Source of the DNA: Yuukianura sp. NJ FZ-2021
Lineage: Eukaryota
Length of the DNA: 64,000 nucleotides
Assembly (NCBI GenBank): GCA_046563655.1
Contig: CM102286.1
Coordinates: forward strand, 7,006,001-7,070,000
Direction of reading: 5' to 3'
The position numbers and the translations under genes were made by a program. Numbering within the stretch: the stretch's first letter is position 1; the number at the start of each line of letters is the position of its first letter. Below the pieces are notes generated by a model. That model was not told the DNA's origin. It did not search any database and saw only the letters and a program-made list of their open reading frames with translations. Positions 58,040-64,000 of the stretch are shown here, piece by piece.

Positions 58040-58139
58040 NNNNNNNNNNNNNNNNNNNNNNNNNNNNNNNNNNNNNNNNNNNNNNNNNNNNNNNNNNNNN
58101 NNNNNNNNNNNNNNNNNNNNNNNNNNNNNNNNNNNNNNN
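58040..58139. other. Assembly gap (100 N)
   Basis: Run of 100 n with near-duplicate sequence on both flanks. Confidence 1.
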
Positions 58140-59031
58140 ACATAGATTTTGGATTGAAAGTGATTAAAATTTGTATAAATTTTTGTCAGCGATTTAACGC
58201 GACTGTATAATGTTATCAAAACAAGCAAGAGAACCCAATAACAATACTTTGTTTAAGCATCTGTAAGATTAGCTATAGCTTCATTTTGTTCCCTGCTGTT
58301 CTAAAATTCTAAAAGCACTGCCTGTTGTCCATAAAGATGAAATGAACGAGTGGAAATTAGTTTTTTCATAAAATATTTCTGCTCATTCGTATTGTATACA
58401 CTTTGTTGCTAGAGATGAATTGTTGCTTGTTTCTTAATAAGGATCATTAATACGATCATACTGCTTAATTGTTCCAGAACTATATTTTCTGGTTAATTTC
58501 GATAAAAACGGGCAGTTTTTTGAGTGATGCTCTCATAATGATGATGACCATCAACTCCAAAGGTAATTACAATTTGTTTTCATTGGAAAACGACACTCTC
58601 AGAACAGAACCATTTGTAATTTCAGAAATAACTCAGGGTAATTAGAACATTGTTCTTTGCGTTAACCTGTTTCCAAGAATTCGTTTAAGTTAATTCCCAG
58701 GGAATAATGACACCATCTCAGGCAATACATTAAACTAAAAAGTAAACAAAAATAAGGTAAAATGTTAACACTATAACTAATAAAAATCACAAAATATTTA
58801 TAGTGTATGTGGCTGTATTTATACAAAAATCTCTTTTTTCAACAAAGTTTGCTGTTTTCCAGGTTTGCAATTGCAGGGAATGCCCTTGGCGTTTAGGTGT
58901 GTGTAGTGTGTCATTTCAATTTCATTTGTGTTGTGGTTGTGGTTAACAAAGTATAATTGACTTAAATGAGGTTTTAATTTCCTTGCAACGACTTATAATG
59001 AGTATTCAACTGCTGTAGTGGCACATGACAT

Positions 59032-59065
59032 TATAAAGCCAACAATTATTAAGTTCAATTCATTT
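59032..59065 (+). promoter_or_regulatory. TATA box + Inr of the lectin gene
   Basis: TATAAA at 59032-59037; TCATTT with its A at 59062, 30 nt downstream and 48 nt before the ATG. Confidence 0.6.
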
Positions 59066-59109
59066 CTGAACATCGTTCTCGTGCTGAGTATTACGAAGGA
59101 AGCAACAAG

Positions 59110-60165
59110 ATGATTTTTAATTACCTACTCAGCATCATAATCGTTTCAATTGTTGCTCTCCCTTCTACAACTGCCCTATTGAAAGATGGTGACATCTATA
59201 GAATTACAAGTGTAGCTGACGGAAATGTAACCAAAACGGTTTTAACTATTACTGTTTGCAATATATTTAAGAAGTGTTTAAATTGTTGAAATATTTAGGT
59301 TTTAACAGTAGGAGGGAAAGCAGGACTGTCTGGGTCAAATATCACTGCAGAGCCCTGGCAGGATGGTGGAAATCAGAAGTGGCTTGCAGTTGAGACAGGT
59401 AGGTCAAGGTATTTCCGAAAAATAATAGTCGCAAATGTTAAGTGAGAAATGCTCTACAGCTCCTTCTTCGGACCGATTTATTTTGATTCCAAAATGGCAA
59501 TCGTGGAACTGGAATGACTTTGCAAAGAACTCCACAAAGGGACAACGAGAGCATCTACCGGATTTTACCATCGCTCTTGCAGTGGATCCCAAATCAGGGC
59601 TTCTGTCAGACCAGGTGAGAACCTTTAAAGTGCATTATGCAGCATTTATATTCACGGAAATTTTCACTGTTTGCCTTCACAAGACAAAATTTTGAATCCC
59701 AACACTTAATTATTTTACAAATTGGTAGATGAAGGCCAAAATAATTTAAAATGCGATGCTTCAGGGTTTCACGGGTAAAAACGGGCAACAGTGGAGAACC
59801 GTCGAAGGGACTGACAAGACAGTCACGGTGAAAAGCGAAGACGACAAATGCATGACAAACCCTGGGTTTGTAAATATCCTTAACAATCACTTTCCTTTTT
59901 GCGTTAAAACTTTAAACTCAATTTTATTTACACTAGGGAACAAGTAGTGAAAACTAAAACCAAGCTTCTTGGTTTCTTGAAAAAGAAGCACAAGAAAATG
60001 TAACAACTCACAAATTAGTTTTATCATCTTCATATTTAGTGGTTAACTTCAGTTTTAATTTGCTCGTATTAATATTTTTCACACAGAATTCCAGCGACAA
60101 TCCGTACCTCCAATTGCGACACTGCAAACAACCAGCAATTGTGGCGAGTGGAGGCTGTTGTATAA
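59110..60165 (+). CDS. Secreted ricin-B-type (beta-trefoil, QxW) lectin-like protein, 183 aa; exons 59110-59226, 59299-59398, 59460-59614, 59765-59865, 60087-60165
   Basis: All four introns are GT-AG with matching phases (0,1,0,2). Protein: hydrophobic signal peptide MIFNYLLSIIIVSIVALPSTTA, then DGDIYRITSVADGNVLTV...NQKW, ...GQQW, KCMTNPG...SNCDTANNQQLW. That gives three QxW motifs and a Cys pair in the third repeat. AATAAA at 60266-60271. Confidence 0.85.
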
Positions 60166-60807
60166 ATTTTTTGCAAAAATATAACCTGATGTGCTAAATA
60201 ACGAATATCCTTCTCACGTAAGCGATGCAATGCGGACTACAGCGTTCCGAAAAAGTTTTGGCGCCAATAAATTGAACTAAACTAGTCGTAAATAGGTCTA
60301 CTTTGGTTGGATGCAAATAAGTTGCTCATTTCACCCAGTTTTCGTACTTTGAATAGTGAGGAAGTGATAATTACAAACAACACTACCATACAGAATTTTG
60401 AAAGCAACAAAACCGAACAATACTGGATTTAAAAATATTAAAATAGGAATGGGTTTTTTAGTCAACTGCCTCCAAGGCATACAGATGTACATAGAAACAG
60501 TTTTTAATATGCCCCCTAACTCATAAATGCATCTGAAGCCATGCAGCACGCCCATTCTAGTCTATATTCTTCAGTTTCATTTCACCAAGATAGTAGAAAC
60601 TGACACTCACATTTTGATTGTTTGCTGATCGCATTCGCATATTCTATCTACCAATAGACCTTTTGGTGAAATTCTACTTCAAAGACAATAAAAGCTGGAA
60701 TAATTCACGATTTGAGTTTCATACGTCAAGAAATATTTAGTTTATGTGAATTTTAACAATAGTTGACGTAAAACTTCGGTTTCATACACTCTATTCAATC
60801 TGCTTAG

Positions 60808-60885
60808 GTAAGGCAAGATTTTAGATTTAAATCTAAGCTTCAAAATTTGAGAACGTGTTCTGAAAGCTTTTTGAATTTGGCATAG
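60808..60885 (+). other. 78-nt spliceosomal intron in the 5'UTR of the DUF1348 gene
   Basis: tag|gtaagg ... ctttttgaatttggcatag|, ending 18 nt before the ATG. Its size matches the short introns of the neighbouring genes. Confidence 0.6.
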
Positions 60886-60903
60886 GTTTGCAAATTCTTT
60901 GAT

Positions 60904-61308
60904 ATGGCGCTCAAACCACCGTTCACGCTCATCACTGCAACAAAGAAAGTTTTGGTAGCTCAAAACCTCTGGAATACTAAAAACCCAGCGTTGGTTGCTG
61001 CTGCGTATACTCCGGATTCTATTTGGAGAAACCGTGATCAGTTTTTTCAAGGGACAGAAGCCATTATTCATTTTCTTCAAAACAAATGGCACAAGGAACA
61101 TGACTATAAGTTGGAAAAAACATTGTTTTGCTTTTCCGACAACAAAATCGCTGTTCACTTTCAGTATGAATACCACAATCGGCTAGGGCACTGGTTCCGT
61201 GCATATGGAAATGAACACTGGACGTTCAATGCGGAGGGATTGATGGAAGTTAGGGACATGAGTTGCAACGACATCCCGATTTCCGAGTCTGAACGTAAAC
61301 TAAAATGA
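60904..61308 (+). CDS. DUF1348 family protein (NTF2/SnoaL-like fold), 134 aa, intronless CDS
   Basis: Family motifs PPFT..TA.KKV, WNT, AYTPDSIWRNR, FL..KW..E.DY.L.K, IAV.F.YEY, WFRAYGNE.W.F...GLM..R..S.ND.PI.ESER span the whole ORF. Confidence 0.93.
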   Translation: MALKPPFTLITATKKVLVAQNLWNTKNPALVAAAYTPDSIWRNRDQFFQGTEAIIHFLQNKWHKEHDYKLEKTLFCFSDNKIAVHFQYEYHNRLGHWFRAYGNEHWTFNAEGLMEVRDMSCNDIPISESERKLK

Positions 61309-62286
61309 TGGAAAAAAGTAATCTTGTGAAATTTTTTTAATATACTTCTAGGTTTCTGGAGTTGATTTGTTTTGTTTAATTTTTAAAAGCACTTGTTAAT
61401 TTTATAATTTTAATTAACAAAACTCTTGTTCGCGTTCGTTATTTTACTTTCGCATTGTTTTACTTAAGAGTTCTTATTTCTTTTAAAAGTATAATATGAA
61501 ATTAAGTTTTAACCGTTAATTAATGTGAACTACAGATATGTAGTTATTTTTTACTTTTCATTTAAATTTACTTTAGTATTATAAGCACTACCTACACTGT
61601 GGAAAAACTTCTGTTGACTTCTGTGCTGAGAATTTCTTGCTCTGATCATACAACATACTGAATTGTTGCCGTAGGGCTCGGAAAAAGTTGTCAAGGTCAT
61701 GCAATAAAAAGTTGGAAACTTAAACTAGACAAAAAGTTCCTTATTTGTCAGAAAGTTAAGAATTGTAAGAATGAGTGTTAGAAATTTTTCATCTTCTACC
61801 ATCATTTAGGAACTAGGAACTGCTGTAAGATTCGTTTACATTGGTGCAGGAAATCATTTGAAAATAGACAATCATCGAAGCATGTAGCCTTGAAGTGAAA
61901 TCATTCATCAAGTGTTGGTGTTGTGCACCTTGATAGGAATTTTATTCCTCGTAACTGCTCAATTCGCAATCTCTCCTTCATACCCACATCAAATCTTGGT
62001 GTGAACACTTTCTGCAAGTAGCCCAAGACGAAGCGGTGTGACAACAATATGGATCTTTTTTCTTCAGTTGCCTTGTTGTACATTGGTTCCTTTCTAATCT
62101 ACGGCCTACTTTTACTTGATTTCAAATACTTTGAAAAATTCGACAGCTCTCTTGTGTCGCCATTCCAAAAAAGTAACGGTCTGCAGCGTCGACTACAGCA
62201 AGAGACGCGGATCGTCTTCTAAGAAACGTTGAAGCAGTAAGAGTATGAGGACAGGAGTGATTGTTTTAAGTGTGATTAATTTAGCA

Positions 62287-63778
62287 ATGACGCTGACCTT
62301 CACTGAGGAAGAGGGAAAGGCCTTGACGACGGTAATTAGCATTTGCTACCACAGCAATATTCAAGTTGTAATGAATAAATGATGCTTTGATGGTAACGGT
62401 TGTTTTAATGTTGCAGCTACTTACAGAACTAGAGACGCTACATCTAGTGGAGAAACTGGAAAGTTCAGAAGACTATTTTTTGATTAGATGGCTTCGTGGT
62501 AAGGCGTAAGGGCAAGCCGCAATCGCAAGGGATTATATGACTAGCTACACTATTTGTTTTGCACCTTTTAATTGAATTTTTAATTCAATGACGCCAAGCT
62601 TTTATCCAAACTAAATTATATAAACTTGTTCCGTTACGATAAATCCAAATACAATGCTGGTTCACGGACATGGGTTTTAGCACAACAGAAAATTATCTGC
62701 CAAATACAAAAGGTTTACCTTTCATTTTAGCCAGAAACCTTCACATAAAGAATGCAACGGAAATGCTTCAAAACGTGAGTCGTTTTGTTAAATTCATCCA
62801 ACTAGTATACCAAAATTTTTTATAATATGAACTAATTAATAACAAGTTTTCTTCTAACCAAAACTAAGATTTCAAATTTCAATTGCAGTATATAACCTGG
62901 AAAGAGCAAAACGAAGACTATAAGGTGGCACACAACAACAATTGGATAGCGCCTCCAATTGTAGTTAATGAATTTAAATACAAATTTACCGGGTTCGATG
63001 CCGATGGGAGGCCTGGTAAGTTAATTCACAAATGTTAAACCAAGCAATCGCAATCGTGATTATTAAAGTATAGCACAAGGCACAACACAAAATTCAGCAT
63101 TTTGCAAATTGTTCCAGTGATTTGGATGCCTGTTGCACGGTACGATATTAAAGGACTTCTGGAGCAGGGGCTGAAATCTGACATTTTTCGCTACTGTTAC
63201 CAATTAATGGACGTGATTCTACTGGAAATTGATCAGCAACGCAAGAAATGTGGTGTATTGCAATTTGTTGCAATTATTGATAGTGCTGAACTGACGATTC
63301 GGAAAATCACGCATGTGGAAAGTAAAGCATTTCTCATCTTTATCAATGTTAATGTATTTCGGAAAATTGTATCATTTCTTCCCTAGAGTATTTATTTTTT
63401 CTTGTTTTTTTTTTACGATTAGCAATCCAGTGCATGCTTCGCTTTATGAAGGAATTCGACGCTTACTATCCAGAACTCATGTACTCATGCTACGTCGTCA
63501 ATGGTAAACTGCGATATTCGACACCAAAAAGCAATACTATTTTTTTTAAATATAGGATCCCAACAGGTTTTCTTTTTCAATATGTTGCAGCTCCATGGTT
63601 ATTTAGCACCATATTCAATTTGGTTAAGCCAATCCTGTCCAGCCACACCCTAAGCAAAATTAATATTTTTGGCTCAAACGAAGAAACCTGGAAAGCAGCA
63701 CTTTTAGCTAATTTGCCAGCATCTTCAATACCCGAAGACTATGGAGGCACTGCTCCTCCAGTTCTAGTTGCTAAGTGA
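62287..63778 (+). CDS. SEC14-like CRAL-TRIO lipid-binding protein, 256 aa, no GOLD domain; exons 62287-62331, 62417-62498, 62731-62774, 62889-63015, 63118-63321, 63423-63503, 63591-63778
   Basis: Six GT-AG introns with consistent phases (0,1,0,1,1,1). Motifs DYFLIRWLRAR (CRAL-TRIO N), GFDADGRPV, IIDSAEL, YYPE...VVNAPWLFSTIFNLVKPILS..T.SKI and IPEDYGGT. Confidence 0.93.
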
Positions 63779-63820
63779 ATTCAAAAATCTCAAAATTTTT
63801 AGTATACATGGTGAATGATG

Positions 63821-63826
63821 AATAAA
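63821..63826 (+). terminator. Polyadenylation signal of the CRAL-TRIO gene
   Basis: AATAAA 43 nt after the stop codon. Confidence 0.5.
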
Positions 63827-64000
63827 TGTTAAACCGATGGCAATATGAATGCAAAAATAAGGTACGAGATAATGATCTAGGCGTATTTCAGAAAAAAGTA
63901 TTATTCTTGCACCTTTTGAATTATAAAGTTCTCCAAACCTTCGAATTTACAAAGTGTATTGCATTGCCAGCATGGTTTTTTCTTAGAAATAAATATTTAA

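Follow-up and report, generated by a model that had tools for sequence, protein, structure and literature searches.

An intact DUF1348 gene in a springtail chromosome, probably acquired long ago from a eukaryotic microbe

Judged from the sequences collected here, proteins of the DUF1348 family otherwise belong to bacteria, to fungi, and to algae and plants. How, then, does an intact member come to lie between intron-bearing genes in a chromosome assembly of the springtail Yuukianura sp., is it really a gene of this animal, and from where could it have been obtained? The original prediction had read the locus as a candidate domesticated horizontal transfer of a microbial-type gene. To answer these questions we analysed the gene within the window, i.e. 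the whole stretch of 64,000 nucleotides (64 kb) in which it was noticed, and all coordinates below are positions of this window unless another contig is named. The features needed for the argument are the following.

58040-58139, no strand: 100-N scaffold gap, situated 2.8 kb before the DUF1348 gene
59110-59870, + strand: small multi-exon gene upstream, ATG at 59110 (exon reading)
60808-60885, + strand: candidate 5′UTR intron of 78 nt, GTAAGG at its start and ATAG at its end (sequence reading)
60886-60903, + strand: remaining 5′UTR, from the candidate intron end to the ATG (sequence reading)
60904-61308, + strand: DUF1348 coding sequence, a single intron-free ATG-to-TGA ORF of 134 codons plus stop
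62049-62222, + strand: small ORF of 57 codons, N-terminal half hydrophobic (ORF list; kept in the related contig L001)
62287-63775, + strand: multi-exon CRAL/TRIO (SEC14-like) gene (PF00650; exon mapping)

The coding sequence at 60904-61308 was read as one frame with neither a break nor an intron. An in-frame TAG at 60883-60885 shuts this frame upstream of the ATG, so the protein starts at 60904, and its relatives begin alike. The PF07080 (DUF1348) profile matches the translated protein with an E-value of 3.2e-59 and 199 bits (cut-off 22.1), covering positions 1-129 of the 130 in the profile, and weaker Pfam matches were to SnoaL_2 and DUF4440, which belong to the same NTF2-like clan. In a sequence search, residues 5-133 matched PDB entry 2imj with an E-value of 4.7e-38. 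The uninterrupted ORF, the PF07080 match and the 2imj match together place the earlier claim of an intact, intronless DUF1348 gene far beyond chance. No second DUF1348 copy was found in the 64-kb window by tblastn.

The AlphaFold2 model of the protein, built on an alignment of 35 sequences (A1), has a mean pLDDT of 97.5, and Foldseek aligned it to 2imj with a TM-score of 0.97, an rmsd of 0.6 Å and 47% identity. After 2imj came ketosteroid isomerases, the SnoaL-like cyclase XimE, the epoxide hydrolase/cyclase SalBIII and LinA. The model contains the alpha+beta cone fold as in 2imj, and a cone-shaped NTF2/SnoaL fold is accordingly what the model predicts for the window protein. The protein in 2imj, the only solved DUF1348 structure, is PFL_3262 of Pseudomonas fluorescens, which has the same family and fold as the window protein; however, this bacterial chain has 166 residues with a C-terminal tail, whereas the window protein has 134 and is without the tail (such tails are visible in A1).

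Whether the gene is resident depends on what it is joined to. Upstream, the product of the small gene at 59110-59870 has a hydrophobic N-terminus and QxW-like repeats, and the piece at 59299-59442 matched PF14200 (ricin-B-lectin) with an E-value of 0.022, which falls below the cut-off; these features hint weakly at a ricin-B-lectin-like protein. Downstream lies a gene with a CRAL/TRIO domain, a domain found throughout eukaryotes. PF00650 was matched on 63353-63775 with an E-value of 1.9e-13, the ATG is at 62287, then a GT follows, and tblastn with the full-length relatives P0280 and P0281 mapped CRAL/TRIO pieces to 62447-62503, 62721-63323 and 63425-63772. The search for its exons among longer proteins gave 2 matches from 584 candidates, and the gene may extend past 63775. 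Between the DUF1348 and CRAL/TRIO genes, the small ORF at 62049-62222 is 47% identical to positions 1738-1932 of L001 (E-value 1e-14). In the window 64 nt separate its stop from the CRAL/TRIO start codon, and in L001 its counterpart (1738-1935, 65 codons) ends 15 nt before the CRAL/TRIO ATG. Two readings of this small ORF seem possible, a conserved upstream ORF or a small membrane protein encoded on the CRAL/TRIO transcript.

L001 is an independent metagenome contig of 2.2 kb, whose DUF1348 protein is 84% identical to that of the window. Its gene order is that of the window, namely the DUF1348 gene, the small ORF, and a CRAL/TRIO-like exon 1 ending in a GT donor. Contigs from public runs also cover the coding sequence and both of its flanks, all of them short and none reaching across the whole stretch. 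One of them (X2 record 14, 61209-61966) links the end of the coding sequence to the 3′ flank, and another (X3 record 20, 61009-61310), which carries a second organism label and comes from a second study, differs at 12 positions, has no gaps and extends past the stop codon. The best-covering runs may be from the window's own sample, and only X3 is counted as independent.

The stretch 58140-64000 is free of N and takes in the DUF1348 gene together with both intron-bearing neighbours. Linkage to native genes is therefore present, by this unbroken stretch, the CRAL/TRIO gene downstream, the order in L001 and the bridging contigs. The earlier statement that the gene lies without a gap between two intron-rich genes holds for 58140-64000, but needs the qualification that 100 N stand at 58040-58139, 2.8 kb upstream. 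The sequence on either side of this gap is near-identical, which points to contig ends that overlap, or to a short duplication in tandem, rather than to missing unique DNA.

The surroundings are AT-rich and gene-poor with short GT-AG introns, and GC content across the 64 kb lies between 33 and 42%. The DUF1348 coding sequence has 42.5% GC, compared with 34.8% in its flanks and 37.4% in the adjacent host exon-ORF. A Pfam scan at strict thresholds covered 141 ORFs in 1-41 kb (minimum length 62 codons) and 137 ORFs in 41-64 kb (minimum length 55 codons in 41-58 kb). CRAL/TRIO was the only clear match outside the DUF1348 gene, and a relaxed Pfam scan, made with P0280 and 19 window ORFs, added only sub-threshold matches for the window ORFs. 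No strict Pfam match was obtained with the scanned ORFs of window positions 1-58000, and Rfam gave no match in the whole 64 kb. The DUF1348 gene thus borders a long gene-poor stretch. We conclude that it is most likely a genuine, intact gene resident in the host.

Comparison of the two DUF1348 coding sequences, in the window and in L001, shows how the gene has been kept. They are 72.6% identical in nucleotides and 84% in protein, and their differences fall on codon positions 1, 2 and 3 in the numbers 19, 9 and 83. Such a split indicates strong purifying selection on the DUF1348 gene. A Nei-Gojobori script gave a dN of 0.119 and a pS of 0.946, a value at which synonymous sites are saturated. 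The window and L001 lineages are deeply diverged, and the DUF1348 protein is strongly constrained in both.

In the 5′ region, the 78-nt segment at 60808-60885 is plausibly a 5′UTR intron as read from its boundaries, and it ends 18 nt before the ATG. In L001 a comparable segment, GTGAGT...CCAG at 267-375, ends 19 nt before the DUF1348 ATG, and this matching position lends mild support to the candidate. Alignment of the upstream non-coding sequences of the window and L001 showed no meaningful conservation. One X2 contig joins 60805 to 60876, skipping 70 nt that overlap the candidate intron. We rejected this joint as a splicing event, its ends being AG..AA and not GT..AG, and it probably reflects an indel, a length variant or a divergent non-coding stretch. 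The DUF1348 gene would probably have its own promoter and a short 5′UTR intron.

To place the gene within its family, relatives were collected by several searches. A single-sequence search gave 163 matches, of which the best 120 were listed. At the top of these stand proteins from metagenomes or read assemblies, 84, 79, 72, 71 and 70% identical. Among the named relatives listed, Apatococcus (a green-algal cluster) and the chytrid Polychytrium come first with 68% each, a fern follows with 65%, and bacteria reach about 53-58%. With a profile of the window clade (the seven-member group defined below), 8000 candidates were scored, 7981 of them with E-values of at most 1e-10, and among the best 120 listed the clade itself scored 226-282 bits and the next match 221. 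Short proteins of 136 residues, one of them named Alteromonadaceae, are up to 64-65% identical in the best 120 listed of this profile search. An exhaustive search returned 2855 relatives at E-values of at most 0.001, and a search of 185,579 prokaryote species, each represented by a single genome, gave at least 600, the best of them 60% identical. No homologue with an animal name occurs among the best 120 of either the single-sequence or the profile search (0/120 in each), where most rows are nameless and weaker animal homologues are possible.

The original prediction had also pointed to motifs that looked partly fungal-like and partly bacterial-like. We counted HWTF, AQNLWNT and YGNE in 141 rows, pooled from the two trees described below, with the following results.

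HWTF: window clade 7/7; named fungi 8/15; plants/algae 4/4; other eukaryotes 9/10; named prokaryotes 0/40; unnamed 5/65
AQNLWNT: window clade 6/7; named fungi 6/15; plants/algae 0/4; other eukaryotes 1/10; named prokaryotes 0/40; unnamed 3/65
YGNE: window clade 7/7; named fungi 1/15; plants/algae 2/4; other eukaryotes 8/10; named prokaryotes 30/40; unnamed 56/65

The mixed look of the DUF1348 protein is thus real. HWTF and AQNLWNT do occur in fungi and in none of the 40 named prokaryote rows, and YGNE is common in prokaryotes and rare in fungi, so that the earlier impression is partly borne out; HWTF and AQNLWNT are found in about half or fewer of the named fungi, and HWTF also in all four plant and algal rows. 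On balance, the sequence comparisons place the gene with the eukaryote type.

Two trees were calculated. Tree 1 has 108 rows, i.e. the window protein, 75 proteins (74 of the best 120, and P0124) and 32 of 80 prokaryote loci, chosen by closeness, names and phylum spread, and its bootstrap was not fully settled. In it the window protein pairs with P0001 (support 100/91), and both fall into a window clade of seven members, the window protein, P0001-P0005 and P0008, which has support of 100/99 in tree 1 and 100/98 in tree 2. The six other members of this clade are all from metagenome or read-assembly sources. Tree 1 further unites the window clade with a fern, a green alga, chytrids and Dikarya in a 29-row clade (96/87); the 14 of its 29 rows that are named are all eukaryotes, and none of the 36 named prokaryote rows falls inside. 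For tree 2, with 106 rows, profile-search matches were added, and the long-branched Thoreauomyces and many redundant rows were left out. Here the window clade joins 24 eukaryote-type rows with weak support (87/66), and in the resulting 31-row group the 17 named rows are again all eukaryotes, with 0 of 30 named prokaryote rows inside. In both trees the window clade stands beside fungi and plants and not inside them, and it is nested in no donor group.

Approximately unbiased (AU) tests were run on tree 2 with groupings chosen after the tree was seen, and under this choice neither the window clade joined to 16 fungal rows (p = 0.239), nor the window clade joined to a 24-row clade of mostly unnamed short proteins including an Alteromonadaceae MAG (p = 0.176), nor a single clade uniting the 41 eukaryote-type rows (p = 0.391, at a cost of 3.5 log-likelihood units) was rejected. 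With about 150 columns and an AU test that rejects neither a fungal nor a bacterial sister, the donor is not resolvable. Elsewhere in tree 2, P0355, a protein from an 'Anthurium amnicola' transcriptome, nests in Dikarya beside a lichen fungus and is probably fungal contamination, and the proteins of ferns and lycophytes form the sister group of the fungi (98/82), a grouping hinting at plant-fungus transfer within the DUF1348 family.

Which history would account for a gene that is intact, linked, under selection and kept in the same order in L001? We consider it probable, from the sequence comparisons, that it is a resident, selected gene that an ancestor of the host lineage acquired long ago from a eukaryotic microbe. 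Whereas the existence of the gene, the fold of its product, its linkage, its conserved order and the purifying selection on it are shown, we infer the transfer and its direction: the gene would have entered the lineage ancestor long ago from a fungus, alga or protist, would then have taken on a host-like base composition, and would have been retained by selection. The reading as a horizontal transfer is partly supported, for the gene in its present place, and is qualified by the position of the window clade, which is nested within no donor group. This same position, basal to fungi and plants in both trees, would also fit old vertical descent from early eukaryotes or opisthokonts, with loss in most animals and retention in the host lineage. 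HWTF, present in 28 of 36 rows of the four eukaryote categories and in none of the 40 named prokaryotes, speaks for such descent, as do the low cost of a single clade of all 41 eukaryote-type rows and the passing of the clade with fungi. We nevertheless regard vertical descent as unlikely, because the lack of any animal name in the best 120 of either search would demand very many independent losses, because eukaryotic DUF1348 proteins are scattered, with a second cluster of 10 eukaryote rows elsewhere in tree 2 (100/98), and because the placement of ferns with fungi suggests transfers among eukaryotes.

Acquisition directly from a bacterium, with the sequence later drifting to host composition, we hold to be less probable again. 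The family is mostly bacterial, as seen from the relatives in one-genome-per-species prokaryote contigs and from the 534 of 613 UniProt members of DUF1348 that were bacterial in 2014 (PMC4608573). The 136-residue proteins, including the Alteromonadaceae one, come close to the window protein in the best 120 listed, their 24-row clade passes the AU test as sister, and YGNE is a motif of prokaryotes far more than of fungi. Yet no named prokaryote row enters the group of the window clade in either free tree, HWTF and AQNLWNT are missing from all 40 named prokaryotes, and the best prokaryote, at 60% identity, remains below the 68% of the chytrid and green-algal matches. Least credible is that a fungal, algal or other microbial gene was brought in by contamination or a chimeric join, or that the whole scaffold is non-animal, and we give this very little weight. 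The 100-N gap 2.8 kb upstream and the fact that fungi and algae are the closest named relatives among the matches listed would point that way, and against them stand the unbroken 58140-64000 with both intron-bearing flanking genes, the identical gene order in the independent L001, contigs of two studies over the coding sequence and its flanks, flanks as AT-rich as the rest of the window, and a remaining 58 kb that is gene-poor and unlike a compact microbial genome. The argument against contamination in the original prediction is upheld by the same neighbours in L001, the uninterrupted stretch and the bridging contigs.

If the gene was acquired from a eukaryotic microbe and kept, what does its product do? 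Since the protein has no N-terminal extension, it is probably cytosolic. Its family is very strongly conserved from one domain of life to another, and its fold is shared with isomerases, cyclases and hydrolases that act on small molecules. In the A1 alignment, which includes the window protein, 34 columns are invariant, and the window protein, keeping all 34, probably retains the ancestral activity of the family. Our best guess, modelled on ketosteroid isomerase, SnoaL-type cyclases and epoxide hydrolase/cyclases, is that the cavity of the cone would either turn over a small hydrophobic or aromatic molecule by acid/base catalysis or bind it tightly.

By analogy with a fungal relative, the role could possibly lie in the tolerance of microbial metabolites. 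Cercosporin is a light-activated perylenequinone toxin. Expression in Neurospora of 71cR, a DUF1348 protein from the fungus Cercospora nicotianae, increased cercosporin resistance, whereas Cercospora with a disrupted 71cR gene showed no phenotype (PMC4608573). According to that report, 71cR is the sole member of the family with an experimental phenotype (PMC4608573). It shares the Pfam family with the window protein and is likewise predicted to be cytosolic, a comparison made by family and not by sequence. Neither tree nests the window gene within Dikarya. One may speculate, although we think it rather a long shot, that a lineage of fungus-grazing soil arthropods captured a eukaryote-type DUF1348 gene, whose product would protect the cytosol from the aromatic polyketide toxins of dietary fungi. 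If true, this would be the first physiological role in an animal for the large DUF1348 family.

Gene neighbourhoods in bacteria were also inspected. In one marine bacterial lineage (L005, 6212-10444) an ABC transporter operon, which includes an NMT1_2-type binding protein, comes immediately before the DUF1348 gene, and a sigma-54 activator lies beside it. L003, L004 and L006 share this arrangement, so the four amount to a single data point. Such a neighbourhood is a possible lead to the substrate of DUF1348 proteins; we set it aside as a lead to function, L003-L006 being one arrangement.

Foreign genes in springtails are already known, and the window gene would add one more case. The genome of Folsomia candida was reported to contain 809 foreign genes (2.8%), with bacteria (39.9%), fungi (32.8%) and protists (24.6%) as sources, and 330 foreign genes are common to F. 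candida and Orchesella cincta (PMC5490193). Like the foreign genes of F. candida described in that report, the window gene is of non-animal type and intact, lies in linkage with native genes and recurs in a diverged relative. The terms DUF1348, PF07080, SnoaL and NTF2 are absent from the searchable supplementary files of the two genome papers, on F. candida and O. cincta, and the gene lists may lie outside these files. In our literature searches no mention of DUF1348 in an animal was found, PF07080 was not found at all, NTF2-like proteins in Collembola were not found, and for SnoaL transfer to arthropods nothing was relevant by title or abstract.

DUF1348 is in this sense an unreported family that would join the list of springtail foreign genes. 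The locus also illustrates that a protein of 134 residues cannot settle its donor, as three conflicting groupings pass the AU test. Its value lies in being a long-kept and strongly constrained copy whose gene order is conserved in a relative, and it offers a tractable animal setting for asking what the widespread DUF1348 family does.
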